From: Longimicrobiales bacterium
GTDB lineage: Bacteria; Gemmatimonadota; Gemmatimonadetes; Longimicrobiales; RSA9
Assembly (NCBI GenBank): GCA_036381495.1
Contig: DASVCS010000032.1
Span: 10,448-74,447, forward strand
Reading direction: 5' to 3'
Length of the DNA stretch: 64,000 nucleotides
In this document: positions 3,918 to 28,013 of the stretch, in pieces
Position numbering within the stretch: the stretch's first letter is position 1
Layout of the letters: the number at the start of each line of letters is the position of its first letter
Notes under the pieces: model-generated
The model's database searches: none
The model's input: the letters and a program-made list of their open reading frames with translations, nothing else
What the model was told of the DNA's origin: nothing
Translations under genes and position numbers: made by a program

Positions 3918-4301
3918 TCACCCTCGCGCCGCGCCGGATACCGCGGAGAGGACCTGCTCGATCTTCTCCTTCAGCACCTGAGGCGTGAACGGCTTCACCA
4001 CATAGTTGTTCACGCCGGCCTCGGCGGCGGCCAGGATGTCCTCGCGCGCGCTGCGCGTGGTCACCATGAGGACGGGGACGTCGCGCGCGTCATCGCGTGC
4101 GCGCAACGCGCGCACGAGGTCGAGCCCGCCGACGTTCGGCATGTTCCAATCCGTGATCACGAAGTCGATCGACGCGTCGAACCGGTCGAGCGCCTCCGCG
4201 CCGTCGCTCGCCTCGACGCAGTCCCCGTAGCCGATGCGTTGGAGCGAGTTGATCACGATCCGCCGCATGGTGGCCGAGTCGTCCACGACCAGGAACTTCA
4301 T
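3918..4301 (-). CDS. cheY: Chemotaxis response regulator CheY
   Basis: 127-aa single REC domain (MKFLVVDDS..., ITDWNMPN phospho-acceptor Asp, VVKPFT). Confidence 0.9.
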   Translation of the reverse strand: MKFLVVDDSATMRRIVINSLQRIGYGDCVEASDGAEALDRFDASIDFVITDWNMPNVGGLDLVRALRARDDARDVPVLMVTTRSAREDILAAAEAGVNNYVVKPFTPQVLKEKIEQVLSAVSGAARG

Positions 4302-4330: not shown

Positions 4331-4645
4331 TCAGATGTCGCCCGAATCGAGCAGCCGCCTGGCCAGTTCATCGATCATGGCAGGCGCATCATACGCGCCG
4401 CGCGCGATCCGATCCCGGATCCCTTCGACGCGTGCCGGATCGAGGTCCTCCAATTCCTCCGCCGGAAAACGATCGCGCGCCCCGGCGAGCGCGCGTCCCT
4501 CCTCAGAGATCTCGACGTGGTCGGCATGGCGCGAGGCGATCGGGCCACGGACCGGCGCCGGCGCCGGCTCCACCCGGCCGGTGTCGCGCTCTACCCGGAT
4601 GCCCGTTCCCTGCGCGGAATCGGGCCGAACGTCGTCGATATTCAT
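4331..4645 (-). CDS. flgM: Anti-sigma-28 factor FlgM
   Basis: The C-terminal region fits the FlgM family (VEISEEGRAL ... RVEGIRDRIARGAYDAPAMIDELARRLL). I chose the start at ATG 4645 because a GGAGG lies 5 nt upstream and the longer ORF start sits inside the promoter. Confidence 0.8.
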   Translation of the reverse strand: MNIDDVRPDSAQGTGIRVERDTGRVEPAPAPVRGPIASRHADHVEISEEGRALAGARDRFPAEELEDLDPARVEGIRDRIARGAYDAPAMIDELARRLLDSGDI

Positions 4646-4665
4646 AGGCACCTCCATCGATCCAA

Positions 4666-4693
4666 GGTTCGGCCGTCGCGGATGCAAACTTTA
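4666..4693 (-). promoter_or_regulatory. Sigma-28 (FliA) promoter of flgM-cheY-cheZ
   Basis: The minus strand reads TAAAGTTT-N12-GCCGAACC, against the enteric consensus TAAAGTTT-N11-GCCGATAA. The site lies about 20 nt upstream of the flgM start. Confidence 0.6.
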
Positions 4694-5936: not shown

Positions 5937-6198
5937 ACGGAGATCCCGGACCCATGAACGACGCACCGATGACGGAGCCGCGCTGGGGAAACGCCGGGAA
6001 AGTGGGTGGTGCCGCCGCCGCGGACCCGGCGTGGGGCCTGCCGGCGCTGCTCGGAGCGGTGGCCGCGTCGGCCGCGGGGGACCGGGACACCGCGATCCGG
6101 CGACCGGATGCGGCACGCGCGGGATCCTTCGCGCCGGGGGCGATCCCGTTCCCGCTCACGCATGAGGGTCTCGCGCTCGGTCGGGGGCGGCGCGGTGC

Positions 6199-6594
6199 TC
6201 ATCCGTCGCCGCCCCGGGATGCCGCGTAGCTCTCGGCGGCTTCGCGCCAGCCTTCGTCGAGCATGGCGACCATGTCGATCACGCGGCCGAGGCGCTCCCG
6301 GTCGAGGGAACGACTGATCCCGGCCAGTTCGCCAAGGAAGTAGCCGTAGAGCGCCGCCAGACGCCCGGCCAGGTCGCCGCCCACATCGAAGTTCAATCCG
6401 CCGAGCAGCTCGAAGAGAATGGCCGACGCCTTCTCGAAGCTGGCCGACTTCCCCTCGAGGTCGCACATCTCGATCTGGCGCGCGGCTCGGCGGAGGTTCA
6501 ACAGGAGCTGCTCGTAGAGCAGGGGTACGACCTGCTCGCTCGAGCTGTTGAGGCGCTGGTTCCGCAGATACGCGCCGCCATCATTGTATCGCAT
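6199..6594 (-). CDS. fliS: Flagellar export chaperone FliS
   Basis: 131-aa ORF with the FliS four-helix pattern (PLLYEQLLLNLRRA ... KASAILFELLGGLNFD ... LAALYGYF). Confidence 0.8.
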   Translation of the reverse strand: MRYNDGGAYLRNQRLNSSSEQVVPLLYEQLLLNLRRAARQIEMCDLEGKSASFEKASAILFELLGGLNFDVGGDLAGRLAALYGYFLGELAGISRSLDRERLGRVIDMVAMLDEGWREAAESYAASRGGDG

Positions 6595-6638
6595 GATCGC
6601 CTGCGTTGAGCCGAAGGGACGTCATTGCGACCTCGCGT

Positions 6639-6821
6639 CTACGAGTGCACGAGTTGCGAGGTCGGCCGTTGCGCCTGGGACTGCGCGCGGGCGAGCGCCG
6701 TCTCCATGGCGGCGAACTCGCGGGCCAACGGTTCGCGGCGCTGGTCGAGGCGCGCCTCCGCGTCCGCGATACGGTCCTCGATCCGCTGAACGCTGGCGTC
6801 CAACCCGTCGATGGGCGGACG
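6639..6821 (-). pseudogene. fliD: fliD 3' remnant (last ~60 codons of the filament cap protein)
   Basis: Translation IDGLDASVQRIEDRIADAEARLDQRREPLAREFAAMETALARAQSQ fits the conserved FliD C-terminal coiled coil. It lies in the canonical position just upstream of fliS. There is no plausible start and no N-terminal or central domains. Confidence 0.55.
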
Positions 6822-6999
6822 ACTCCTTGAAGATGCGTTTGACGACAGCCGGTTTGTTCCCCACGATGATGATGCCCAGGCCCGCGCCCCCGATGATGAA
6901 CTCGGAGACCTGGAGCCGCGCGAAGACGTTGCCGCCGTGCATCGGGTAGCCGGCGGGGATGCTCCCGAAGACGACAGCGAGGCCCGCAATGATGGACAC
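6822..6999 (-). pseudogene. motA: motA 5' remnant (first ~57 codons)
   Basis: From GTG at 6999 the translation is SIIAGLAVVFGSIPAGYPMHGGNVFARLQVSEFIIGGAGLGIIIVGNKPAVVKRIFK. This aligns residue for residue with the E. coli MotA N-terminus (LGYLVVLGTVFGGYLMTGGSLGALYQPAELVIIAGAGIGSFIVGNNGKAIKGTLK). Homology then stops and the frame differs from the fliD remnant. Confidence 0.6.
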
Positions 7000-7113
7000 G
7001 GTCGATTCTGCGCCAGTGCAACGGATGTCCGTGATGATGTCCCGCCCGACAGTATCGGCGAGTCGGGCTTCGGGCTGCAATTCAGGGTTGCGGACGTGGG
7101 CCGGAGGCGCCGC

Positions 7114-7890
7114 GTGAGTGGCGCGGCGGCGGCGTGGCAAGCGCTGGGTGAGGAGATCCTCGCCGGGTTCTGTCACGAGATGAACGGGCGGCTCACCACG
7201 CTGCGCGGCACGCTCGAGCTGGCGTGCATGGACGGCCAGGTCGAGGCGGGGGTGGGCGACGAACTGGCGGCCGAGCTCGAGCGGCTCGAACGCACGGTCC
7301 GGCTGGTTCGCCACCTGGGCGCGGAGCGCGACACGGAGCCCGAGCCGATCCGCCCGATCGAACTCCTGCCGCTGGCCGTGACGCTGCTACGACATCACCG
7401 CGAGCTGGGCGGCATCGAGGTCGAGGTGGCCGAGGTCGGCGACACGCCGGCGGTGCTGGCGCCGTGGTCGCGGCTGCTGCGGCTGCTCACGCTCCTGCTG
7501 GCCGGCGCCGCCGAGGCCGCGCAGCGGGACGGGCGCGGCGGGGTGCGCGTGGAGGTACGAGGCGATGGCGATGACGTGGTGGTGGAGGCGGGGCGCGGGG
7601 CGCGCCCGACCGCGGGGTCCGGGGCCGAGACGCCGGCAGAGGCGAGAGCGGGAGATGCGGTGGCTGTGGGTGGGGCGGAGGCGGGCCGCGGGGCCGGGCT
7701 GGACGGTCCGGTCGGCGATGGAGCCGGCCACGCCCGGACGCCGCCCGGCGATCCCGCGCGAGGCCCGCTCGTGCTTGCCGATGCGTTGCGCGCCGGTGCC
7801 GCCGCATTGGGCGGTACGCTCGTCGGGGCGAGTGGCGCGGAGGATCGGCTCGCGGTGCGCCTGCCGGCCTGGCGCGACGCGGAACCGTAG
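7114..7890 (+). CDS. Sensor-less NtrB/FlrB-like histidine kinase with degenerate ATPase domain
   Basis: GTG start with GGAGG 6 nt upstream. It has an H-box GFCHEMNGRLTTLRG (compare NtrB AHEIKNPLGGLRG). The N-box Asn is absent (LLTLLLAGAAEAA). The G1/G2 boxes are degenerate (EAGRGA, GRGAGL). Confidence 0.5.
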   Translation: MSGAAAAWQALGEEILAGFCHEMNGRLTTLRGTLELACMDGQVEAGVGDELAAELERLERTVRLVRHLGAERDTEPEPIRPIELLPLAVTLLRHHRELGGIEVEVAEVGDTPAVLAPWSRLLRLLTLLLAGAAEAAQRDGRGGVRVEVRGDGDDVVVEAGRGARPTAGSGAETPAEARAGDAVAVGGAEAGRGAGLDGPVGDGAGHARTPPGDPARGPLVLADALRAGAAALGGTLVGASGAEDRLAVRLPAWRDAEP

Positions 7891-7955: not shown

Positions 7956-8471
7956 TCAGAGACGACGACGCGGATGCCGCCGTCGACGCGGATCGCGTCG
8001 CCCGGGCGCCGGGTCAGAATCCGTACGCGGCGCGCCGCAGAGGGCGCGGAGGAGTTCGTCGTCGGAGCCCAGCGCGCCGCGCAGGACGTGGCGATTCAAC
8101 GAGACTTCATCCGAGAGCGCGAGCGCCTTCCGCTGGAGTTCGTCGCGCGCGTCACGCAGCGCATCGGTCATCCGGGGGCCGAGCGCGGCGTCCAGTTCGT
8201 CGAGCGTGATGTCGTCGCGGCCGCCGAGGATCATCAGGAGCGTGCGTCGCGAGCGCCGGGCCTCGCCGATGGTCTGGAGCACCCGGTGCGCCGCGAAGAT
8301 GCTCTCGTCCACCCGCTGCACATCATCGGCGGCCACGCCCTCGCGCTGGGCGCGCAGGATCTGCCCCAGCTCATCGAGCAGGCGCAGTTCGGTGCGAATG
8401 GCCGCTTCGAGCGTCTCCACCGTGGGGCGCGGCGTGGCGGCCGTCCCGGAAGCCGTGGATGCGCCGCTCAT
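7956..8471 (-). CDS. flgN: Flagellar chaperone FlgN-like
   Basis: 171-aa helical ORF (LEAAIRTELRLLDELGQILRAQREGVAADD...). Its start overlaps the upstream stop (ATGA). Assignment rests on position and helical pattern. Confidence 0.6.
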   Translation of the reverse strand: MSGASTASGTAATPRPTVETLEAAIRTELRLLDELGQILRAQREGVAADDVQRVDESIFAAHRVLQTIGEARRSRRTLLMILGGRDDITLDELDAALGPRMTDALRDARDELQRKALALSDEVSLNRHVLRGALGSDDELLRALCGAPRTDSDPAPGRRDPRRRRHPRRRL

Positions 8472-8797
8472 TCGCCGCCCGGCTGGCTGGCCGCATCCGT
8501 GCCGCCGTCGGCGCCGCCGCTCAGGCGGCGATGGAGCGCCGCGCCCAGGCCGCGCTCGAAGCGCGCCGCCGCGAGCACCGAAAGCTCGCCATCCAGCAGT
8601 CCGGAGAAGATGTCCTCACCGGCGCCGCCATCGAGGATGCCGCCCTCCGGGATCGTCTCACGAAGCGCCTTCGTCAGTTGCATCATGAATACTCCTTCCA
8701 GTGCGGCGCACGCTTCGCGCAGTGAGACCTCGCCCGTTGTTCCCGGCGCGGGCCCGGCCACCGGAGCGCGTCCGTCCGCGCGGATCGGCGCGCTCAT
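8468..8797 (-). CDS. Rod-binding protein (FlgJ N-terminal domain only)
   Basis: Rod_binding signature ACAALEGVFMMQLTKALRETIPEGG...GEDIFSGLLDGELSVLAAARFERGLGAAL. No muramidase domain is present. The start at ATG 8797 overlaps the upstream stop. Confidence 0.7.
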   Translation of the reverse strand: MSAPIRADGRAPVAGPAPGTTGEVSLREACAALEGVFMMQLTKALRETIPEGGILDGGAGEDIFSGLLDGELSVLAAARFERGLGAALHRRLSGGADGGTDAASQPGGE

Positions 8798-8931
8798 CGG
8801 ACGTCGACCGCCGCCGCCAGCGCGCCCACGCTGCGCAGCGATTGGAAGATCGCCGCGATCGCCGAGGGTGGCGCGGCGGCGGCGATCGTCGCGACGGCCG
8901 CGACGAGAACGGATCCCCGCATACGCTTCAT
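8794..8931 (-). pseudogene. flgI: flgI mini-ORF (signal peptide plus C-terminal ~25 residues of the P-ring protein)
   Basis: 45 codons: MKRMRGSVLVAAVATIAAAA-PPSAIAAIFQSLRSVGALAAAVDVR. The tail matches the conserved FlgI C-terminus (..TP.DL..ILQ.MK.AGAL.AELEVI). A GGAGGG lies upstream of the ATG. About 320 internal codons are missing. Confidence 0.5.
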
Positions 8932-9713
8932 GATCTTCCCTCCCCTGCCACCTCGATGTGAACCCGTGCGGGCCCGGCCGCGACGCCTTCGAGCCGCCTG
9001 TCCGTCGCGGTCCGGACCGCGACACCCTCTCCGAGCGCCGCCGATCCGATGGCGGTCCCGGGCAGCAGCGGCACCACCAGCGGGCCATCCTCGCCCAGAG
9101 ATGAGGATCGCCCCGCCGCACTCGGCCAGACCGGACTCGCGCGGCGCTGCGAGCGCGCTGGCGAGCTGGACGGTGCCGGAGTCCGTGGGCGTCACGCGCA
9201 GTTCCCGGACGCCGCCGCGGTCGAGCACGGGGGTAGAGCGCGCGCGGAGCAGTGAAGCATCCGCGTCGTGGACTTCGAGGGTGAGGCGTGGGTCGATCGG
9301 ATCGGACAACCGCCGGGAGACCTGGTAACGCGCCGTGCCCGTGATGGCGACCGGGATCCCCGTGCGCGTGCCCCCCGGCTCGAGCCGCAGCTCGGTGATC
9401 ACGCCAGCCGCGCCGGCGGCCACCGCCTCGGCGACGCGCAGCGCCTGCCCCTCTGCCGCCGCGGCCGGATCGCCGCGGGATGGCGGCCGCGTCGGGGCGA
9501 GCGTCCGCGCGATCGCGGCCCAGGTCTCGAAGGCATCCGGCGCGCGCAACGCCGTCCGTGTCAGACCGGCAGATCCCGCGCCAGCGCCTCCCGCAGCGCC
9601 GTCACCGGCCGCTGCTGCCACGCGCGCACGGAGCCCGCCGGCCCGGCCGCGGCACCCGCGGCGATCGCCGGCGCGTGCAGCGCCAGCGCACCGATGGGCG
9701 CCAGCCGCATCAT
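8932..9713 (-). pseudogene. Disrupted ORF translationally coupled to fliA (unknown, possibly degraded flagellar gene)
   Basis: An ATGATG at 9713 overlaps the fliA TGA and encodes a signal-peptide-like MMRLAPIGALALHAPAIAAGAAA..., which stops after 50 codons (9561). Protein-like sequence continues in another frame, then degenerates into an Arg-rich tract before flgI'. Confidence 0.3.
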
Positions 9714-10483
9714 GAGACCGACTCCTCTCGTAGCGTCGCCAGGCGGTCGCGGAGCGTCCCGATGGCCTTCGATCGGATCTGCGAGACCCGCGATTCGGTC
9801 AGATGCAGGATCTTCGCGATCTGGTGCAGCTTCAGTTCCTCGAAGTAGTAGAGCGAGAGCACCACGCGTTCGCGCTCCTTGAGCGTCAGGATCTCGCGAC
9901 GCAGCAGCTCGAGCTCCTGCGTGCGATTGACATCCTGCTCGATCTGTTCGCCGTCCTCGCCGATCAGGACATCGAGCGGCGTGGTCTGGGTGCCGTCCTC
10001 GGTCTCGAGCGGCCGGTCGAGCGAGACCTGCACCGCCTCCTCCGCATCCTGCTCCCAGCGCCAGAGCTTCTCGACGTCGATCCCCAGCGCCTCGGCCGTC
10101 TCCTTGGCATCCGGCGGCCGGTCGAGCGCACCCATCAACGCCTCGCGCACCGAGTTGATCTGCCGCTGCTTCCGCCGGACCGAGCGCGGCGCGTGGTCCC
10201 ACCGGCGCAGGTCGTCCAGGATCGCGCCCCGGATGCGCGGCGCCGCGAAGGTGCTGAACGCCAGACCACGCGAAGGCTCGAAATTCTCGATCGCCTTGAT
10301 CAGCCCGATCGTGCCGGCGCTCACCAGGTCGTCGAACTCTCGCTCGACGTGTAGCGTCCGCACCAACTGCCTCGCCACGTGGTGGACCAGCCGTAGATGA
10401 CGTGACAGCAGCCGCTCCCGCGCGGCCGGATCACCCTTCTTCTGATATGCCTCCCATAGGGTTGCCGATTCCATGGTCTTCAT
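9710..10483 (-). CDS. fliA: RNA polymerase sigma-28 factor FliA
   Basis: Sigma-70 family regions 2-4 are present (LVHHVARQL, DLVSAGTIGLIKAIENFEP, FSTFAAPRIRGAILD, LHQIAKILHLTESRVSQIRSKAI). It sits in a flagellar context. Start chosen at MKTMES. Confidence 0.9.
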   Translation of the reverse strand: MKTMESATLWEAYQKKGDPAARERLLSRHLRLVHHVARQLVRTLHVEREFDDLVSAGTIGLIKAIENFEPSRGLAFSTFAAPRIRGAILDDLRRWDHAPRSVRRKQRQINSVREALMGALDRPPDAKETAEALGIDVEKLWRWEQDAEEAVQVSLDRPLETEDGTQTTPLDVLIGEDGEQIEQDVNRTQELELLRREILTLKERERVVLSLYYFEELKLHQIAKILHLTESRVSQIRSKAIGTLRDRLATLREESVS

Positions 10484-10487
10484 CCCT

Positions 10488-10847
10488 TCACCTGGGGGAT
10501 CCAAGTGGGCCGGCCGACCCAAGCCCGGCGAAACTGTGAACGGCGAGCACACGCTCCCCGATGGCGCTTACCGCGACGGGCAGCGGCGAACCCGCTTCGG
10601 CCTCCTGCACGGTCCCACCCGCGTCGATCGCTGCGCGAAGCCCCGGATCATCCGGGAGCGCACCGCCGAACCCGATCTCGCGCGCCAGGAAATGCCGCAC
10701 CCCCTCGCCCCCGCCAAGGGTCACGCCCTCCTCCCGGCCCACTGCCGCTTCGGCTCCGCCCTCGCGCATCACCACGCTCATCCGGTTGTCGAATCGGTGA
10801 ATTTCCGCTGCTCCGGCGCGCTCACCGCTTGGCAGACTCCGTACCAC
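10488..10847 (-). pseudogene. flhG: flhG (MinD/ParA-type) 3' remnant
   Basis: Only the C-terminal part is recognisable (NR...GVRHFLAREIGFGGALPDDPGLRAAIDAGGTV...AVSAIGERVLA; compare B. subtilis FlhG VNR...[22 protein letters not shown]). There is no P-loop N-terminal half. It ends 5 nt before fliA. Confidence 0.45.
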
Positions 10848-11237: not shown

Positions 11238-12647
<1,410 letters not shown>

Positions 12648-12783: not shown

Positions 12784-13580
12784 GTGAGGATCACCAACAA
12801 CGGACTCCAGCGAGAGGCGCTCGCGAATTGCCAGCGCGGTCTCGCGGAGATCGACGAGATCCGGGAACGCGTTGCCAGTGGCACGCGGATCCGGCAGCCA
12901 TCGGATGACCCGATCGCCGCCGGCGCGGTCCTGCGCACGGATGGACGCCTGCGGGCGCTCGAGCAGTACCGCCGGAACATCGATGCCGCGCGCGTCCGTG
13001 CCTCCGCTGAGGAGAACGTGCTCGAGCAGCTCACGGGGCTGCTCACGCGTGCGCGAGAGCTGGCCGTCGGTCAGGCGGATGCCACCGCCACTGCCGAGAC
13101 GCGGGCGGCCGCGCGCCGTGAGGTGGACGAGTTGCTCGCCACGGTCGTTCAGCTCGGCAACACGCGTTTCCAGGGGAGCTACCTCTTCGGCGGCGCCTTC
13201 GCCGATGCGGAACCCTTCGATGCGACGGGCGCGACGGATCCCGCCCATCCGCCCGTCGGCGACTACCGCGTCGAGGTCGCGGCCGGGCAGCTCGTGCGGG
13301 CGCACCACGATGGACAGACGGTCTTTGTCGACAGCGGCATCATCTCGGCGCTCCAGGACCTGTCCGCGGCGCTCGATGCCGACGACGATGCGGGCGTGAA
13401 GGCGGCGATTTCCGCCGTGGATGACGCGTTCGGCGCCGTCCAGACGCTCACGGGCGAGATCGGGCCGCGCTGGATGTGGCTGCGGCCAACGTCGAGGCGT
13501 GGGACGTCAATCTGCGTACGTTCCGCTCGGACCTCGCCGACGTCGAAGTCGAGGAAGCGATCTCCCGCCTGGTCGAAGGA
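12784..13580 (+). pseudogene. flgL: flgL (hook-associated protein 3), frameshifted and 3'-truncated
   Basis: The N-terminus is MRITNN... with a flagellin_N-like region for 228 codons. Homology then continues in another frame (AALDVAAANVEAWDVNLRTFRSDLADVEVEEAISRLV) after a GGG run at 13462-13464, where GGGG would restore the frame. The last ~25 codons are absent. Confidence 0.65.
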
Positions 13581-13821
13581 CTACGTGGTCGACCTCGGCG
13601 ACGCCGATGTCGCCGGTCTCGGTGCGGCGACGCCCGCCGACATCCTCGTCCTCTCGATCGTCACGCTCCCCGCCACGGCCGGCGATCCGTGCACGGTCAA
13701 CCTCCAGGGCCCGCTCGTGATGCATCTGGCACGCGGACAGGGGCGGCAGGTCGTCTTGAACGAACCCGAATACGGGGTCCGCTGTCCGCTCGATCTCCCG
13801 GCGTCCACCCCCGCGACTTGA
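13581..13821 (+). pseudogene. fliW: fliW 3' remnant (C-terminal half only)
   Basis: DYVVDLGDADVAGLG...ILVLSIVTLPATAGDPCTVNLQGPLVMHLARGQGRQVVLNEPEYGVRCPL matches the second half of FliW (B. subtilis NYEFDLDE...STANLLAPIIVN...AKQVVLHDSSY). There is no N-terminal half and no own start. It abuts the flgL remnant. Confidence 0.6.
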
Positions 13822-13852
13822 ATCACGGTGAGGGGCGCACCCGGGATCGGAG

Positions 13853-14989
13853 CTACCTGACCCGCGCGCCCCCCAGTAGCCGCAGGATCGCCGGCGCGAT
13901 CTGCGGCAACGCCAGGATCTCCTCCGCCGCATCCAGCCGCACCGCCTCCCGTGGCATCCCCCACACCACACTGGTCCGCTCGTCCTGGACCAGCGTCCGC
14001 GCACCGCTCATCCGCAACGCCTTCAACCCTTGCGCCCCATCCGCCCCCATCCCCGTCAGGAGCACGCCGATCGCGTTGCGCCCCGCGCTCCGCGCGACCG
14101 ACAGGAACAGGACGTCGACCGCCGGGCGCTGGTGATGCACCGGCGGGCCATCCTTGATCCGCACGCTGTAACGGGCGCCGTTCTGCTGCACGACCACGTG
14201 GTGGCCGCCCGGCGCGATCAGCGCGAGCCCCGGCACGATCGGGTCGTTGTCGCGCGCCTCGCGCACCTCCATGGCGCAGACCTGGTTCAGCCGCGCCGCG
14301 AACGCCGTCGTGAACTGCCCCGGCATGTGCTGCACGATCACCGTCCCTGGCGCATTCGCCGGGAGCGCCCGCAGGATCGTCTCGATCGCAGCCGGTCCGC
14401 CCGTCGACGCCCCGATCGCCAGCACCTTGTGCGTCGTCACCAGCGGCCGCCGCTCGCTCCGGCGCGACGCCGCGGGAGCGCTCCGCACCCCCGTCGCCGG
14501 TCGCGCGATCCGCGCCGATGCGCCCGCGCGGATCGCCTCGACGAGTCGGCGCGCGTCCTGCGGCGTCGAGTACGCCGAGCCCGGCTTGCTCACCACCTCG
14601 ATGGCGCCGAGCGCCAGTGCACGCACCGCCGCCTCGCTTCCTTCCGGCGCGAGCGAACTCACGATCACGACCGGCATCGGATGGTGCGCCATCAGCTTCT
14701 CGAGGAACGAGAGCCCATCCATCCGCGGCATCTCGATGTCCAGCGTGAGGACGTCCGGCCGGAGCTGCGCGATCTTCTCCCGCGCCACGTACGGATCCGT
14801 CGCGGTGCCCACGACCTCGATGCCATCGTAGCCGGACAGCGTTTCGGTCAGGACCTTCCGCACCAGCGCCGAATCATCGATGATCAGGACGCGGATCACC
14901 CGCTGCGCTCCACTCAGAGGCTCCTGGCGCACGGCCGCACCCGCGCGCACACTCCACCCGCCCTCGCCTGAACGCCGGCGCGCCCGCAT
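13853..14989 (-). CDS. cheB: Chemotaxis methylesterase/deamidase CheB
   Basis: REC domain (VLIIDDSALVR...TLDIEMPRMDG) plus a CheB catalytic domain (GASTGGP, QHMP, GMGADG). The exact start is uncertain. Confidence 0.9.
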   Translation of the reverse strand: MRARRRSGEGGWSVRAGAAVRQEPLSGAQRVIRVLIIDDSALVRKVLTETLSGYDGIEVVGTATDPYVAREKIAQLRPDVLTLDIEMPRMDGLSFLEKLMAHHPMPVVIVSSLAPEGSEAAVRALALGAIEVVSKPGSAYSTPQDARRLVEAIRAGASARIARPATGVRSAPAASRRSERRPLVTTHKVLAIGASTGGPAAIETILRALPANAPGTVIVQHMPGQFTTAFAARLNQVCAMEVREARDNDPIVPGLALIAPGGHHVVVQQNGARYSVRIKDGPPVHHQRPAVDVLFLSVARSAGRNAIGVLLTGMGADGAQGLKALRMSGARTLVQDERTSVVWGMPREAVRLDAAEEILALPQIAPAILRLLGGARVR

Positions 14990-15070
14990 CAGGCGACCTC
15001 CGCACGGCCGCGCCCGAAGCGGCGCCGCCGGATCCCGGCCACCCCGCCACGCCGATGCGCGGACCGACGG

Positions 15071-15898
15071 TCAGCGCCGGTACACCGCGGGCTGCACATA
15101 CCGGTAGTCGTGGGACAACGCCGCGAGGCTCTCCGAATGCCCGACCAGCAGGTAGCCGCCCGGCGCGAGCACGGACCGGAACGCCTCGATGAGACGTTGC
15201 TGCATCGTGCGATCGAAGTAGATCATCACGTTGCGACAGAAGATCACATCGAACGGACCCCGCATCGGCCAGGGGTCGAAGAGGTTGAGCCGCGCGAGTC
15301 GCACGAGCCGGGCTACGCCCGAGCTGACCCGGTAGCGTCGCGGCGAGCGCGGCTGTACGCACGTGAAGTGACGGACGAGGAGGTCGCGCGGCACGTCGGC
15401 CAGCGCCGTCTCATCATAGACGCCCGCCCGGGCAACTGCCAGCACGCGCGTCGAGATGTCCGTCCCCAGGACGCGCACGTCCAGGACATCGCACTCGGGG
15501 ATCGCCTCACGAAGCGTGATCGCGATCGAATACGGCTCCTCTCCCGAGGAGCAGCCGGCGCTCCAGATCCGGATCCGCCGGCGCGCGCGCACCAGTTCGG
15601 GCAGGATCACCTCGCGGAGGTATCGGAAGTGTTGCGGCTCACGGAAGAAACCGGTCTTGTTGGTCGTCATCGCGTCGATGAGTTCGGCCAGTTCGCGCCC
15701 CGTCGGGTCGTCGCGCAACAGACCGAAGTATGCATCGAAGCTCGGAAGCCCGAGTTCCCGGATGCGACGCACCAGTCGCGTCCGGACCAGTTCCCTCTTC
15801 CCACGCCGCAACGTGATCCCGCACAGGCGGTAGATCAGGCTGCGGACCATCTCGAACTGCTCGGGGGTCAGCTCGAAGGGCGTCGATTCGGCCAGCAT
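15071..15898 (-). CDS. cheR: Chemotaxis methyltransferase CheR
   Basis: CheR N-terminal helical domain plus a SAM-dependent methyltransferase domain (TNKTGFFREPQHF, IRIWSAGCSSGEEPYS, FCRNVMIYFD). Start chosen at MLAES. Confidence 0.9.
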   Translation of the reverse strand: MLAESTPFELTPEQFEMVRSLIYRLCGITLRRGKRELVRTRLVRRIRELGLPSFDAYFGLLRDDPTGRELAELIDAMTTNKTGFFREPQHFRYLREVILPELVRARRRIRIWSAGCSSGEEPYSIAITLREAIPECDVLDVRVLGTDISTRVLAVARAGVYDETALADVPRDLLVRHFTCVQPRSPRRYRVSSGVARLVRLARLNLFDPWPMRGPFDVIFCRNVMIYFDRTMQQRLIEAFRSVLAPGGYLLVGHSESLAALSHDYRYVQPAVYRR

Positions 15899-16008
15899 CG
15901 TGCGGAACTCGGGAGGCGGGGATCGAGGCGCGGGGCGCACGCCGGCGCCCCGATGGTCGCCCGCCGCGCGGCGCCGTGCCGTCGCGGCGAGCGGAGCCCC
16001 GCGTGGGC

Positions 16009-18474
16009 TCAGAATTCCTTCAGGATCGCCTCGTCCTCGTTGAACGGAATCAGACGGCGGGACTCATCCGCCGCTTGCCCGTTGCGCCCCCGCGCCGACG
16101 TCCCACGGCGCGTGCGCCGCGCCTCCTCCATCGGCAGCCTCCCCGCCGGTCCCCCGCTCGCCACCCTCGTTTCGCTGCGCTCCGCAAGGCGGAACTCGGC
16201 AACGAGCCGGCGCATCCCCTCCGCCTGACGACTCAACCCGTCCGCCGCACTCGCGCTCTCCTCCGAGTTCGCCGCCGTCTGCTGCGTCAGCGAGTTCATC
16301 TGCTCCACCGCCACGTTGATCTGTTCCACTCCCTGACTCTGCTGCTCACTCGCCGCCGCGATCTCCGCCATCACCTCGCCCACGCGGTTCACCTGCTCGT
16401 CGATCTCTTCCAGGTTCGAGAGCACTTCCTGGTTCAGCGCGACGCCGCCTTCCGCCTTCGCAACGCTCTCCTCGATCAACTGCGCCGTGTTCTTCGCGGC
16501 TTCCGCGCTCCGCATGGCCAGGTTCCGCACCTCCTCCGCGACCACCGCGAAGCCCTTCCCGGCCTCACCCGCCCGCGCCGCTTCGACTGCCGCGTTCAGC
16601 GCCAGCAGATTCGTCTGGAACGCGATCTCATCGATCGTCTTCACGATCTTCGCCGTCGCGTCGCTGCTCGCCTTGATCTCCTCGACCGCCGTCGAGAGGC
16701 GACGCATGCTGCCGACACCGCGCCCCGCGCTCTCCCGCGCGCGCTCCGCCAGGCTCCGCGCCTCCTTCGCGTTCGCCGTGTTCTGCTGCGTCATGCTGCT
16801 CAGCTCCTGGAGGCTGCTCGACACCTCCTCGAGCGAGCTGGCCTGCTCCCCCGCCCCTTCCGCCAATGCCTGGCTGCCACGGCTGATCTGCGCACTCGCC
16901 GCCGCCACCTGGTCCGCCGCCGCCGCCACGCCGCTCAACGCCTCGTCCAGACTCTCCAGCGCCGTGTTCAGCGCCTCCTTGATCCGCGCGTGGTCACCCT
17001 CGTACTCACCTTGCATCCGGACGGTCAGGTCCCGCGCCGCCACCCGATCGAGCACCCGTGACGCCTCGTTGATCGGGCCGACCACCGCATCCAGCGTCCG
17101 GTTGATCCCCTCGACGATCGCGCGGTACGCACCCGCGAACTTGTCGGCATTGCCCCGGGTCGCGAGACGCCCCGCCTGCGCCGCCGCGGTCAGACGCGTC
17201 GTCTCCTCCGTCAGTTCGCGCAGCGATGCGGAGATCCGCAGCAACGGCGCCGCGATCTCATCCCCATCGCCGCCATCCGGCCGCTCGTACGTCAGGTCGC
17301 CATCGGCAAAGCGGTACAATGCACCGACCACGTGCTCCTGGAGATTGTCCGCGAACTCATCCATCGTCCGCGCCAGCACCCCGATCTCGTCCTCACGATC
17401 CATCTCGAGACGGTGGCTCAGATCGCCGCCCGACATCTTCTGGATCATGAAGACCACCTTCGACAGCGGCTGCGCGATCCGCGTCGCGCTCATCCACGCC
17501 AGGACCGCCACGCCGCCCGCCACGCACAGCGCCAGCGCCACCAGGAACCACATCAGGTCGGTCGATTCCGCGAACGCCTCGCCCGCATCCTCCGTGACCA
17601 GGACGCCGGCCTTGCCGCCCATGAAGCCGCGGTACCACCCCTCCGTCGCGCCGCCGTTGTCCAGCGCGCCGTAGCTCGCCAATACGGCGTCATCGCCGAA
17701 CAGCGGCTCGACCGTGTAACCCGTCCGCCCCTGCGCCATCTCCGCACCCGCACGACTCCCCTGAATGTCCAGCGTCAAGACCTCGTCAGGATCCGTCGAC
17801 GCGATCACCGTCCCCGCCGGATCCACCACGTACGCCCGGACCGTCTCCTGCCCCTGCGTCGCGAAGTACGACTCGACGTAGTTCAGCACCATCCCCGCGG
17901 TCGCCTGCCAGTCCAGCTCCGCCACGACCACACCCAGGTTCTCGTCCGTCATCGATCGAACCGCGTCCGCGATCAGGATCTGCGGCCGCCCATCCGGACC
18001 CCGTTGCACCGGGCTCAGATACGTCGGCGAGTTCTCCGCGATGCCACCCTGGAACCACGCCGTTCCCACCACGTTCTGTGGCGCGTGCGCCAGCGCCTCC
18101 ACACTGCTCGCCGCCTTCAGCACGCCCTCCCGGTCGTAGACCAGGATCCCCCGGATGAGCCTCGATCGCGCGATCAGGTCCGAGAGCACCGCCTGAACCG
18201 CCGTCGTGTCCCCCATCCCCATCGCCGCCAGAACCAGCTCCGTATTGCTGCCAATGACCTGGATATCCAGCGCACGCTCGTAAATGATCCGGTCGAACCA
18301 GCTCGCCGCCTGATCCGCCACCAACGCGCGGTCGCGCCCCATCCGCTCCTCGAGCGTGCCGCGCATCGTGAACACCGCCATGCCGATCGAGATCGCCAGC
18401 GGCAGCAGGGCGATCGCCAGTGATGTGACCAGCAGCCTGGTACGCAGACTCTTCTTCAAGAGATCGATCATCAT
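16009..18474 (-). CDS. Methyl-accepting chemotaxis protein (large periplasmic sensor, HAMP, extended signalling domain)
   Basis: 821 aa with an N-terminal TM, a ~280-aa extracytoplasmic (Cache-like) region, a second TM, HAMP, and the conserved MCP hairpin ([40 protein letters not shown]). Confidence 0.9.
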
Positions 18475-18516
18475 TTCCGTCCCCGGGAGGTCGGCGCGCG
18501 ACGGGCGCGCCCGCCG

Positions 18517-18939
18517 TCAGTTGCTGTAGACGATCGGCAGCGCGACCATCGTGCGCACCGGTTTCCCGTTCAGCTTGCCGGGAACGAACCGGAGCTGCTT
18601 GGCCACCTCGCGGGCCGCATCACCCAGCGCACTCGCTGTGGCCGCCAGCACCTTGATCGTCTCGGGCTCGACCCGGCCATCCGGCCCGACCACGAACTGA
18701 AGCTGAACCTTCCCCGTGACACCCGCCATGCGCAGCGGCGCCGGGTACGACTCCTTGATCAGAGCCCTCGCGCGAGCCTCCGACTCGAAGGTGGGCAGCG
18801 ACGTCAGCTCGGACGGACTGTAGATCGGCGCCGCCTGCGCCCACGCGGGCTCATGCGCGAGCAACAGCAACGAAACCGCGATGATGGCCGGAAACCACCA
18901 TCGCAAAATTTCACACCGATCCACCGTTCCGTGCTTCAT
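18517..18939 (-). CDS. TonB C-terminal-domain protein (secreted)
   Basis: 140 aa with a signal/TM segment and a TonB_C-like fold (YPAPLRMAGVTGKVQLQFVVGPDGRVE...ALGDAAREVAKQLRFVPGKLNGKPV). AGGAGG lies upstream of the ATG. There is no proline-rich spacer. Confidence 0.7.
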   Translation of the reverse strand: MKHGTVDRCEILRWWFPAIIAVSLLLLAHEPAWAQAAPIYSPSELTSLPTFESEARARALIKESYPAPLRMAGVTGKVQLQFVVGPDGRVEPETIKVLAATASALGDAAREVAKQLRFVPGKLNGKPVRTMVALPIVYSN

Positions 18940-18976
18940 CCATTCCTCCTGTGTTCTGCACTGCTTTCCGCACCCA

Positions 18977-19004
18977 GTATCGGACGCGCCGGGCCCGGAC
19001 TTTA
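18977..19004 (-). promoter_or_regulatory. Sigma-28 promoter upstream of the TonB_C gene / MCP
   Basis: The minus strand reads TAAAGTCC-N12-TCCGATAC. It has the same architecture and 12-nt spacing as the flgM and cheA promoters and lies ~38 nt upstream of the ATG. Confidence 0.55.
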
Positions 19005-19068
19005 TAAAAATTTCCCCCGGACTTCGTACAAAACTTTCACCACCATGGCGGACCGCCGCCGCACCGCG

Positions 19069-19641
19069 TCACGACTCCGCCTCAGCCGATGATGCCGCCT
19101 GCACCGCCTGCAACGCCGTCACTTCGCTCTTCTCGAGGACGCGTTCGATGTCGAGGAGCAGCCGGACCTTCCCGGCCGTCTTCGCGATGCCGAGCAGGTA
19201 TTCCGTTGTCACGCCACTGCCGAAACTCGGCGCATCCTCGATCTCCGCCGCCGGGATGTCGACCACCTCCGATACGCGGTCGACCATCAGCCCCATCTGC
19301 ACGCCCGTCACCTCGACGACGATCATGCACTGTTCGCGCGATTCCTCGCCCGGCGGCATCCCGAGCTTCAGCCGCAGGTCCACGATCGGGATCACCCGCC
19401 CCCGCAGGTTGATGACGCCGCGGATGAACTCGGGAACGCGGGGCACCCGCGTGATCGGGAGGCGTCCGATGATCTCCTGCACGTTGAGGATCCCGACGCC
19501 GTACTCCTCGTCGCCCAGCGAGAACGTCAGGAACTTGCCCGCAATCGCCTCTTTCGCGACGGTCTCCTGGCTCGTGGCCGTTTCGCTCATGAGTTCGTCC
19601 CCCGTGCCTGAGGCGGCGGCGCGACTCCGGCGCGGCATCAT
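19069..19641 (-). CDS. cheW: Chemotaxis coupling protein CheW
   Basis: CheW domain (KFLTFSLGDEEYGVGILNVQEIIG...IRGVINLRGRVIPIVDLR). An ATGATG at 19641 overlaps the cheA TGA. An alternative start is at 19590. Confidence 0.85.
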   Translation of the reverse strand: MMPRRSRAAASGTGDELMSETATSQETVAKEAIAGKFLTFSLGDEEYGVGILNVQEIIGRLPITRVPRVPEFIRGVINLRGRVIPIVDLRLKLGMPPGEESREQCMIVVEVTGVQMGLMVDRVSEVVDIPAAEIEDAPSFGSGVTTEYLLGIAKTAGKVRLLLDIERVLEKSEVTALQAVQAASSAEAES

Positions 19642-21719
19642 GCCACCGACCGGAGTGCGGACCCGACGCCGTTCCCGTGTCCGGGCTGCCTCGAAATCGA
19701 AATGATCTGCGCGGGATCGAGGATCAGCCCGACGTGTCCATCGCCCAGGATCGCCGCGCCCGAGATCCCGGGCACATGCCCGATCCACGCGCCGAGCGGC
19801 TTCGCAACGACCTGCGTCTGCGCGATCAACTCGTCGACCAGAAGCGCACAACGCCGTTCACCGCTCCCGATGACGACCAGGAGCGCCTGCGTCGGATCCG
19901 TTTCGGCGCCCTCGATGTCGAAGAGGCGGTGCAGCCGCACGACCGGCAGGAGCGCATCCCGCAGCTTCACCAGTTCGTCCCGCCCCGCCACGGTCGGCAG
20001 CGCATCGCGCGTCGGCCGGAAACTCATCTGGATGCCGACCGTCGGGATGATGTAGCGCTCGCCGCCGACCCGAATCAGCATGCCGTCCGTGATGGCGAGC
20101 GTCAGTGGAAGGCGAAGCGAGAACGTCGTGCCCTTCCCCCGCTCGGACGCGATCTCGACGCGGCCGCCGATCGCCTCGACGTTGCGCCGCACCACGTCCA
20201 TGCCCACGCCTCGGCCCGAGATGTTCGTCAGCTCCTCGGCCGTCGAGAACCCGGGCGCGAAGATCAGCTCGAAGACATCCGCGTCCGAGAGGCCACGGTC
20301 CGATTCCAGGAGCCCTCGCGCCAACGCCTTCTCGACGATCCGATCACGGTCCAACCCGCGGCCATCGTCTTGCAGCTCGATCACCACGTTGCCGCGGTGG
20401 TGGTACGCCGCCAGCCGCACCGTGCCCCGCCGCGGCTTCCCGTTCGCCTCGCGCACGTCCGGCGGCTCGATCCCGTGGTCCACCGCGTTGCGGACCATGT
20501 GCACCAGAGGGTCGCTGATGAAGTCGACCATGTTCCGGTCGATCTCCGTGTCCTCCGCCTCCATGACGTAGTCGATCAGCTTGCCGCGCCGCTGTGCGAC
20601 GTCGCGCGCAAGGCGCGCCATCTTCTGGAACGTCGCCTTGAGCGGCACCATGCGCATCGCGATCGTCAGGTCTTGGAGCTCGCGCACGATCTTGCCGGCG
20701 TGCGCGACCGCCCGGGTCAGGTCCTCGCCGACGCCGCCGACCGCGCACTCGCGCGCGACCATCGACTGCGAGACCACCAGCTCGCCCACCATGTCCACCA
20801 GGCGATCGAGTCGGTCCGTTCGGACCCGAACCCAGGACTCCGCCCCCCGGTCCGTCCCCCGCGCCGGCTCCGATCCGCCCGCCGCGGCAGCGCGTGCCCC
20901 ACTTCCGGCACCATCGACGGCACCTCCGGCCGCCGCACTCGCCGCCGCCCCGGCCGTCGGATCCGGCGCGTCCAGCGACCGCAACAGCTCGGCGTAACCC
21001 GCCGGCGTGGCCGGCACGCCGCCCGCCAATTGTTCCTGGAGCCCCGTGATGAACGCGCCCAACATGTCCACGGCGCGGAGCGCCAGCTCCACATAGGCGC
21101 CGCCGAACCGGACCTCACCCTCCCGAACCCGACTCAACAGCGACTCGGCTCGGTGCGCCAGCTCCGTGACCTCTTCCAGGCCGAGGAACGCCGATGTCCC
21201 CTTGAGCGTGTGGAAAACGCGGAAGACGGTGTTGCACGACTCGACGTCGTCCGGATCCGACTCGAGAAGGAGGAGCGCGGACTCCGCGGCATCGAGCGAA
21301 TCGCGGCTCTCATCGATGAAACATTCGAGCAGGTCGCGATCCGCCGCCGCGATATCGATCGCCGCCGGCGCATCATCCGATGCCGGCGTCGCCTCGCGCG
21401 ATGACGCCACTTCCGACGGATCCTGTCCGTCCAGCGCGAGCATCGCACGCTCGATGAGCGAGCCCACCTCGGAGACCACCGCGTCGGGCTTCGCCACACG
21501 GCCGCGCCGGATCTCATCCAGCCGCCAGGCCGCGTCCAGCACGAACGCACGCGCGAGCGGCCACGGCTCCAGCCGGCTGTCCAGCCGGTGCAAGGCGCGA
21601 CGGATGACGTCGAGCTCCGCCATGTCCGTCGCATCGACCTGGAGCAGCAGCGCCGCGATCTCGTTCAGCGAGAGCGGCTCATCCCCGACCGCAGGTTTTT
21701 GCTTTTTTCTTCTCGGCAC
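19638..21719 (-). CDS. cheA: Chemotaxis histidine kinase CheA
   Basis: HPt (FRVFHTLKGTSAFLG), dimerisation, HATPase_c (DDGRGLD, GRGVGMDVV) and CheW-like domains are present. I moved the start to GTG 21719 (GGAG 6 nt upstream) because a sigma-28 promoter lies inside the longest ORF. Confidence 0.9.
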   Translation of the reverse strand: MPRRKKQKPAVGDEPLSLNEIAALLLQVDATDMAELDVIRRALHRLDSRLEPWPLARAFVLDAAWRLDEIRRGRVAKPDAVVSEVGSLIERAMLALDGQDPSEVASSREATPASDDAPAAIDIAAADRDLLECFIDESRDSLDAAESALLLLESDPDDVESCNTVFRVFHTLKGTSAFLGLEEVTELAHRAESLLSRVREGEVRFGGAYVELALRAVDMLGAFITGLQEQLAGGVPATPAGYAELLRSLDAPDPTAGAAASAAAGGAVDGAGSGARAAAAGGSEPARGTDRGAESWVRVRTDRLDRLVDMVGELVVSQSMVARECAVGGVGEDLTRAVAHAGKIVRELQDLTIAMRMVPLKATFQKMARLARDVAQRRGKLIDYVMEAEDTEIDRNMVDFISDPLVHMVRNAVDHGIEPPDVREANGKPRRGTVRLAAYHHRGNVVIELQDDGRGLDRDRIVEKALARGLLESDRGLSDADVFELIFAPGFSTAEELTNISGRGVGMDVVRRNVEAIGGRVEIASERGKGTTFSLRLPLTLAITDGMLIRVGGERYIIPTVGIQMSFRPTRDALPTVAGRDELVKLRDALLPVVRLHRLFDIEGAETDPTQALLVVIGSGERRCALLVDELIAQTQVVAKPLGAWIGHVPGISGAAILGDGHVGLILDPAQIISISRQPGHGNGVGSALRSVA

Positions 21720-21765
21720 TCCCGGCTCCGCGGCTGCCGGATTTTCATACAATTTCTCCTGGCCA

Positions 21766-21793
21766 GTCTCGGCCGCCGGTCCGGGAAACTTTA
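21766..21793 (-). promoter_or_regulatory. Sigma-28 promoter of cheA-cheW
   Basis: The minus strand reads TAAAGTTT-N12-GCCGAGAC, with its -10 end ~45 nt upstream of the proposed cheA start. Confidence 0.6.
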
Positions 21794-21875
21794 ACGCGGC
21801 TCGCACGCGGGTTCCGAGCCGCACGGCCGCTCGCCGCGCTCGGTCCGCGGGCGCGTACGACGTCGAAATGCCGCG

Positions 21876-25800: not shown

Positions 25801-25860
25801 CGCAAACGCCCCCGCTCCCGCTCCGGGCGGGTCGCCATCCCGTTCCCGTTCCCGGCGCCT
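25801..25860 (-). repeat. Short copy/fragment of the G-tract repeat family (R5)
   Basis: The reverse complement reads gggaacgggaacgggatgg...ggagcgggagcgggggcgtttgcg. This resembles the family core gggaacgggagcgggagcgggaacgtttacg. It fills the ftsY upstream intergenic gap. Confidence 0.45.
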
Positions 25861-27847: not shown

Positions 27848-28013
27848 CCACCGAACTCCCGTCCGTTGCCGCTCTTCCCGGCCGGCACCGCCGGGGCTCC
27901 GCCTAGTACGCCGGCACGCCCCGAGAGATCCGCCGTTTCTTCGGCCCGCCACCGCCATTTCCGCCGCCCTCCCGCCGGATCCGGAGGGCGTTGCACGTGG
28001 CGCGCCGCGCCGG

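Follow-up and report, generated by a model that had tools for sequence, protein, structure and literature searches.

A probable deletion scar between motA and fliD among the flagellar genes of an uncultured member of the Longimicrobiales

How does the start of a stator gene come to lie, out of frame, against the end of a filament cap gene? The question is raised by a stretch of 64,000 nt from an uncultured Longimicrobiales bacterium (Gemmatimonadota), taken from contig DASVCS010000032.1 of assembly GCA_036381495.1 (forward strand, positions 10,448 to 74,447) and called the window here; coordinates refer to it. On its minus strand a 5' fragment of motA (motA') is followed by a 3' fragment of fliD ('fliD) and then by fliS. 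With a probability of about 0.9, we read this junction as the scar of a genomic deletion in a cluster of flagellar genes in the course of being lost. The genes for motor, rod, ring, hook junction, filament and cap have disappeared; fliA, flgM, fliS and the chemotaxis (che) genes remain intact, and the organism has presumably lost its motility. This is ordinary gene loss caught part-way, a fresh example of a well-known process that involves no new mechanism or kind of element.

The two gene stubs and their junction

The region consists of the following features:
6823..6999, minus strand: motA', codons 1-59 of motA from a GTG start, with one codon lost and radical substitutions
6813..6822, minus strand: junction, 10 nt (TCGTCCGCCC) assignable to neither parent gene; MotA homology ends at 6823, FliD starts at 6812
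6639..6812, minus strand: 'fliD, the last 57 codons and the TAG stop (6641-6639) of fliD, in a frame different from that of motA'
6622..6999, minus strand: chimeric open reading frame (ORF) of 125 aa, 59 MotA residues and 66 Arg-rich out-of-frame residues across 'fliD
6199..6594, minus strand: fliS, intact, 131 aa

From GTG 6999 to codon 59 (6825-6823), motA' translates into VSIIAGLAVVFGSIPAGYPMHGGNVFARLQVSEFIIGGAGLGIIIVGNKPAVVKRIFKE. The Pfam family MotA_N (PF20560) matched this sequence with E=7.2e-10 and 39.4 bits (cut-off 27.3) over profile positions 1-59 of 91. Residues 1-60 of MotA from the closest relative found (P0078, FliA 78 % identical; loci L010, L011 and L012) were 70 % identical to it in tblastn (L010, E=3e-15), with the homology ending at 6823. 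The original prediction had described about 57 MotA residues from this GTG and an end of homology at about 6822-6830, and both statements are borne out. In phmmer against 1.84 billion representative proteins, motA' obtained 68 matches at E<1e-3 (best E=5.9e-10). Nearly all of these alignments begin at residues 1-3 of the hit; internal matches were few, and in the two inspected (P0009, P0020) the upstream residues resemble over-extended ORF calls. The exhaustive phmmer search was required, a word-indexed search with the 59-aa fragment having given zero matches. A weak match of E. coli MotA at 39963-40136 (E=0.58) was disregarded. The channel domain MotA_ExbB (PF01618), located at residues 125-238 in MotA of the closest relative, had no Pfam match in the 230-aa ORF containing motA', and motB does not adjoin motA': MotB queries of L015 and L021 yielded zero tblastn matches in the window. 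With the MotA stator family motA' shares the MotA_N domain at residues 1-59, including the identity to the closest relative given above, but residues 60-285 and with them the whole MotA_ExbB proton-channel domain are gone. The stub is predicted to be a nonfunctional pseudogene fragment and not a functional member of the family.

The substitutions in motA' point in the same direction. Seven of 60 residue states (11.7 %) were unseen among 28-32 distinct relatives: S2, A5, P15, P19, F26, R28 and the loss of one codon from the SEFIIIGG motif. P15 (I/L15P) and P19 (T/V19P) are located in the first hydrophobic helix, and R28 replaces an invariant leucine (L28R). As controls, four relatives of comparable closeness had about one unseen state in 60 (1.7 %), and a few more distant relatives had 9-11 in the same test. 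In fliA, compared with 100 relatives, none of 44 invariant positions was changed and 1.6 % of the states were unseen, as in functional controls. Constraint on motA' appears to be relaxed, and the stub seems to have drifted for some time while fliA was still constrained.

The frame of 'fliD, read from 6812 to the TAG stop, translates into IDGLDASVQRIEDRIADAEARLDQRREPLAREFAAMETALARAQSQAQRPTSQLVHS. It aligned with the very C-terminal ends of FliD in five relatives (L009, L021, L015, L041 and L006) at 37-54 % identity (BLASTP and tblastn), for instance with residues 698-748 of 756 in L009 (47 %, E=6e-12), with residues 959-1009 of 1018 in L021 (51 %) and with FliD of L015 (45 %). The aligned portion comprises the last ~54 residues, the C-terminal coiled coil. 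Here the conserved W-L of FliD ...SQWLASQL, a comparison with four relatives only, reads R-P. The Pfam match to FliD_C was marginal (E=1.4e-3, 18.5 bits) and partial, covering the last 44 profile positions (192-235 of 236), and a FliD_N domain was not found at 'fliD. An alignment that carried the FliD frame on to 6857, into motA', was dismissed as spurious. While 'fliD shares the C-terminal coiled coil with the FliD cap family, about 960 of ~1020 residues and FliD_N are missing; a terminal coiled-coil segment of this kind is expected to be nonfunctional. The FliD proteins of L015 (14399-17506), L021 (14017-17073) and L024 (6114-9173) are roughly double the usual size (1018-1035 aa); for L006 and L009 the lengths are 684 and 756 aa.

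The change of frame is visible without homology. The GC-richest codon phase is pos%3=1 over 6820-6999 (0.93-0.95) and pos%3=0 over 6640-6819 (0.90-0.93), in both cases the phase expected for the third codon position. Together with the C-terminal alignments, this phase switch bears out the claim of about 60 FliD residues in another frame, and the 44 nt noted between the 'fliD stop and fliS are present (fliS ATG at 6594). The stop of the chimeric ORF lies 27 nt before fliS, and Pfam gave no family match for this ORF besides MotA_N. The product of fliS matched the Pfam family FliS with E=2e-21 (profile positions 3-114 of 115) and is 60 % identical to FliS of L021; at NCBI an exact copy is annotated as FliS of a Longimicrobiales bacterium, and the exact FliA sequence is assigned to the same organism. 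In L006, L009, L015 and L021 a gene for 121-159 aa follows directly after fliS. In the window, the 263 nt between fliS and a convergent epimerase gene (5937-6198) contain no detectable homologue of it, and the missing gene may represent another deletion.

The window derives from a metagenome-assembled genome (MAG), so a chimeric or collapsed join of motA and fliD, with both genes intact in the organism, had to be considered. The junction is, however, spanned by short-read Logan contigs from two runs, L001 (SRR25158368) with 100 % identity over 2373 nt and L002 (SRR23047312) over 1881 nt with one mismatch, a single-nucleotide polymorphism at 7263. With the same junction in three assemblies, one of which carries a variant, a misjoin is unlikely. 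Gene order and orientation on both flanks agree with those in relatives. At least five further scars and a frameshift hit flagellar genes only, whereas CheA (728 aa), a methyl-accepting chemotaxis protein (MCP, 821 aa) and RecG (701 aa) are intact. The radical private substitutions in motA' are expected of an old pseudogene and not of a misjoin. An assembly artefact is thus extremely improbable.

Native flanks and the probable extent of the deletion

Both sides of the junction were compared with relatives. Upstream of motA' lies, in divergent orientation:
7117..7890, plus strand: neighbour gene of motA, 257-aa product with weak resemblance to histidine kinases, no significant Pfam match

At least 15 Gemmatimonadota relatives have an orthologue of this gene (29-41 % identity) directly upstream of motA and divergent to it. 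The product of the window gene contains a faint HisKA-like H-box (FCHEMNGRLTTLRG). On the other side, 'fliD is positioned directly upstream of fliS, the adjacency seen in L015, L021, L024 and L041. As the neighbour gene and the fliD-fliS adjacency match the relatives, both flanks of the junction are in their native place and the interior alone is missing.

The closest relative has an intact colinear cluster in the order flgE-fliL-fliM-fliN-fliOP-fliQ-fliR-flhB-flhA-flhF-flhG-fliA-(481-aa unknown)-flgF-flgG-flgA-flgH-flgI, continued by flgJ(rod-binding)-flgN-flgK-csrA-[254-aa gene, other strand]-motA-motB-[EAL/HDOD gene]-glycosyltransferase/methyltransferase genes-fliC. The window gene at 7117-7890 is the orthologue of the 254-aa opposite-strand gene. 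In five relatives (L015, L018, L021, L024, L041) a single strand carries motA-motB-(0 or 1 gene)-fliC-fliD-fliS, and ~17-90 nt separate the end of fliD (1018-1035 aa) from fliS. No trace of motB or fliC was found in the window by tblastn with proteins of the relatives, and no mobile-element remnant is present at the junction. The claims that everything between the motA start and the fliD end is absent and that a large deletion formed the junction agree with the colinear flanks and the frame break.

The ancestor would have had the one-strand order ...flgN-flgK-csrA-[divergent gene]-motA-motB-(0-3 further genes)-fliC-fliD-fliS. One deletion, or overlapping successive ones, would have taken out motA from codon 60 onwards and all DNA up to a point about 57 codons short of the fliD end, and would have joined the two stubs out of frame. 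Measured between these points, the missing interval has 5,833 nt in the layout of L024, 6,721 nt in that of L021, 7,154 nt in that of L015 and at least 14 kb in that of L012; the deletion would thus span ~5.8-7.2 kb if the ancestor resembled the first three and at least 14 kb if it resembled L012. The colinear one-strand order in relatives makes a single deletion sufficient for the junction. A single deletion and overlapping successive deletions are indistinguishable, and we infer the single event and its size from the layouts of the relatives.

A scan of genome contigs with FliS returned Bdellovibrionota only, with 31-34 % identity, while the FliA query gave the informative relative. L006 and L009, relatives found through FliS, lack motA within 10 kb and so are uninformative on the deletion. 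Comparison of the loci with the window by tblastx gave high-GC noise only and was discarded.

Further scars and the genes that remain

The junction does not stand alone. It is one of at least six scars that are packed into ~7 kb and affect flagellar genes only. The remnants, and a flgJ-like gene among them, were found by tblastn of the proteins of the closest relative against the window and by follow-up alignments:
10488..10766, minus strand: 'flhG, the last ~90 codons; 45 % identity to L010 FlhG residues 209-268, E=2e-9
9148..9564, minus strand: residues 62-199 of an unknown gene (481 aa), located after fliA in relatives; 42 % identity, E=1e-17
8928..9065, minus strand: 'flgA, the last 45 codons (residues 225-269); 51 % identity to L010 FlgA residues 225-267 of 269
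8794..8931, minus strand: 45-aa ORF of the flgH start (MKRMRG) and the last 39 FlgI residues; L010 FlgI 316-354, score 106
8468..8797, minus strand: rod-binding flgJ-like gene, apparently full length; 60 % identity to L010 FlgJ 5-95, Pfam Rod-binding E=8e-5
7961..8471, minus strand: flgN' residues 1-154 of 180 (8471-8025) abutting csrA residues 1-22 (8026-7961) in another frame
12784..13821, plus strand: flgL pseudogene fused to 'fliW, a 345-aa ORF open by accident; Pfam and alignments to L006 FlgL and FliW

Upstream of 'flhG, which was traced by eye to about residue 190, the genes flgE through flhF that precede flhG in the relative are absent. The remnant of the 481-aa gene joins 'flgA after 82 nt, with the loss of flgF, flgG and most of flgA (~3 kb). 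About 1.5 kb is deleted within the 45-aa ORF, in which the six-residue match to the flgH start is weak. The ATGA stop/start overlaps are preserved at flgA/flgH and flgI/flgJ. In the flgN'/csrA' scar (56 % identity to FlgN and 73 % to CsrA in tblastn with the L010 proteins) flgK is deleted, a gene for 465 aa in the relative (order flgN-flgK-csrA), corresponding to ~1.5 kb. Beyond residue 22, csrA has either degenerated or been cut off where the opposite-strand gene has its 3' end. This scar is also contained in a Logan contig of SRR25158368, and the flgL/fliW ORF is likewise found in a Logan contig.

In that ORF, flgL residues 1-246 are in frame, a frameshift occurs near 13466, residues ~250-285 follow in another frame and the last ~25 codons are missing; 'fliW, starting about 13590, comprises residues ~76-150 (the last ~75). 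Pfam recognized Flagellin_N (E=6e-17) and FliW (profile positions 50-122 of 122, E=4e-14) in the 345-aa ORF, but no Flagellin_C. In L006 the genes flgL-fliW-fliC-fliD-fliS are contiguous; here fliC does not follow flgL'/'fliW. Beyond the remnants listed, tblastn detected no flagellar fragments in the window, and the junctions showed no insertion sequence.

This part of the locus bears on a multi-step history, in which an inversion, a translocation or a rearrangement by a mobile element, together with deletions, left motA' beside 'fliD. The locus has clearly suffered many events: flgL'/'fliW lies on the opposite strand (12784-13821), unlike the contiguous order in L006, and upstream of 'flhG the locus was replaced by a sigma-54 activator gene and the che cluster. 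At the junction itself, however, a single deletion suffices, since motA and fliD are on the same strand, in the right order and 3-4 kb apart in five relatives. Only 10 nt are unassigned there, motB, fliC and mobile elements have left no remnant, and the window holds no other flagellar fragments by tblastn. We regard a multi-step origin of the junction as unlikely.

Several genes beside the remnants are complete:
9710..10474, minus strand: fliA (sigma-28), intact; 78 % identity to P0078/L010 over 252 of 255 residues; Pfam sigma-70 r2, r3 and r4
4331-4687: flgM, complete domain set
3918-4301: cheY, complete domain set
11238-12647: sigma-54 activator gene, complete domain set
13853-21824, minus strand: complete-looking chemotaxis cluster of cheA, cheW, the 821-aa dCache/HAMP MCP gene, cheR and cheB

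The cheB gene converges with the 345-aa flgL'-'fliW ORF and ends 31 nt downstream of it. The only match to the sigma-54 promoter pattern in the window, TGGTACGGAGTCTGC (10846-10832; 0.2 expected by chance), lies ~70 nt upstream of 'flhG and just downstream of the sigma-54 activator gene (11238-12647). Expression of fliA may now start from this site.

The intact chemotaxis genes, fliA and flgM, and the limitation of the view to 64 kb of an 89-kb contig, would also fit a decayed duplicate locus in a genome with a second, intact flagellar system. The relatives speak against this: each relative examined has one colinear cluster, with which the remnants in the window are syntenic, and the ~20 kb examined of each relative's contig gave no hint of a second set. 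A duplicate is very unlikely.

For the deletion scar in a cluster being lost, the reading that we prefer, the following points count on the other side. Only 64 kb of the genome are visible, and an intact second flagellar locus may lie elsewhere. Of the two Pfam assignments of the stubs, MotA_N is above its cut-off while FliD_C, at 18.5 bits, stays under the gathering cut-off of 25.4. The MAG itself may have been assembled from one of the two Logan runs, and the support given by these runs is at the contig level. The nearest relatives are distant (FliA 78 %, FliS 60 % identical), and the gene content of the motB-fliC interval varies among them. Finally, flgL'/'fliW is on the opposite strand and 6 kb away, although flgL-fliW precedes fliC-fliD in L006, the sole relative in which these two genes were seen; by its strand and place at least one rearrangement may have occurred besides plain deletions.

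A probably retained promoter and comparison with known losses

Upstream of motA' the following element is found:
7052..7080, minus strand: putative sigma-28-type promoter with -35-like TTGCAG (7080-7075), 15-nt spacer and -10 GCCGATAC (7059-7052)

The -10 element is located ~53 nt from the motA' GTG, as had been predicted, and an GCCGATAA-like element is present. Eleven relatives (L012, L014, L015, L017, L018, L021, L024, L026, L027, L041, L046) show GCCGATA[C/A] equally far upstream of motA, 15 nt after [C/T/G][C/T][C/T]CA[G/A], the whole site lying ~75-50 nt upstream of motA. TTGCAG matches the -35-like element of the relatives at five of six positions with the identical 15-nt spacer. The view that no -35 element is left thus does not seem to hold for this lineage; the enterobacterial form TAAA is indeed absent upstream of motA'. 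The -10 motif occurs four times in the window against 5.9 expected, without enrichment. As its frequency is not above chance, the argument for the promoter is one of positional conservation only. The sigma-28-type motA promoter of the lineage, including its -35-like element, appears to be retained and would be active. As a by-product, the motA promoter of this clade can be defined as [C/T]CA[G/A]-N15-GCCGATA[C/A], with a -35-like element different from the enterobacterial TAAA.

Neither a sigma-70-like promoter nor a terminator-like hairpin was found between 6100 and 7300. With no terminator-like site between the promoter and fliS, read-through is possible, and transcription from the retained promoter could cover the 125-aa junk ORF and continue into the intact fliS. 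The remnant might therefore be kept for a function, the MotA-N chimera as a small membrane protein or the stubs as carriers of a promoter or leader of fliS. The correct spacing of the retained promoter and the absence of a terminator would agree with this, as would the intact appearance of fliS and fliA, the latter apparently constrained, and the position of other remnants directly upstream of retained genes with preserved ATGA start/stop overlaps. Such a function is disfavoured by the prolines and the arginine in the first transmembrane/hydrophobic segment of motA', by the lost codon and by the Arg-rich out-of-frame tail. FliS has no known client here, fliC being absent from the window, and random deletions bounded by genes still selected or not yet hit would leave the same remnants. 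A function of the remnant is quite improbable. A wider version is also rather doubtful: selection would have kept fliA, flgM, fliS, the flgJ-like gene, most of flgN, the che genes and the promoter and start-site stubs while every structural gene was excised, and the FliA/FlgM circuit, with the motA promoter captured upstream of fliS, would have been repurposed for non-flagellar control in a lineage devoid of flagella.

Flagellar pseudogenization by deletion is known from lineages that gave up motility, e.g., Shigella, Yersinia pestis and Burkholderia mallei. The locus shares with them the inactivation of structural genes by deletions and frameshifts, truncated ends in syntenic operons and the persistence of some regulatory and chemotaxis genes for a time. 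It differs in its host, an uncultured and presumably free-living member of the Longimicrobiales known from metagenomes only, and in the density of at least six scars within ~7 kb with no insertion sequence seen at the junctions. The patchiness of flagellar genes in the phylum implies repeated losses: among more than 400 Gemmatimonadota MAGs surveyed, they occurred in some lineages and habitats only (PMC10581226). That survey scores presence or absence (>60 % of the genes), whereas this locus is an intermediate state with identifiable remnants and breakpoints. It shows the loss of a flagellum down to the breakpoints, in a little-known phylum where the process was previously visible only as gene presence or absence across MAGs. 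A warning for annotation follows from the 345-aa flgL'-'fliW fusion and the 125-aa motA' chimera, which look like genes and are scars; pathway-completeness scoring could miscount such ORFs. The locus also raises the question whether fliA, flgM, fliS and the chemotaxis genes are still used after the flagellum is gone.

Two minor observations concern the window as a whole and one the interval between motB and fliC in relatives. The window has a G+C content of 71 %, and a 699-aa ORF on its minus strand (25859-27958) had no Pfam match at E<0.01. In L012 the ~7 kb between motB and fliC (13271-20321) contain glycosyltransferase/TPR, FkbM-methyltransferase/sulfotransferase/APS-kinase and GT2/TPR genes, and L009 has a similar gene set upstream of fliC. 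Judged by this gene content, the L012 segment looks like a flagellin-glycosylation island.

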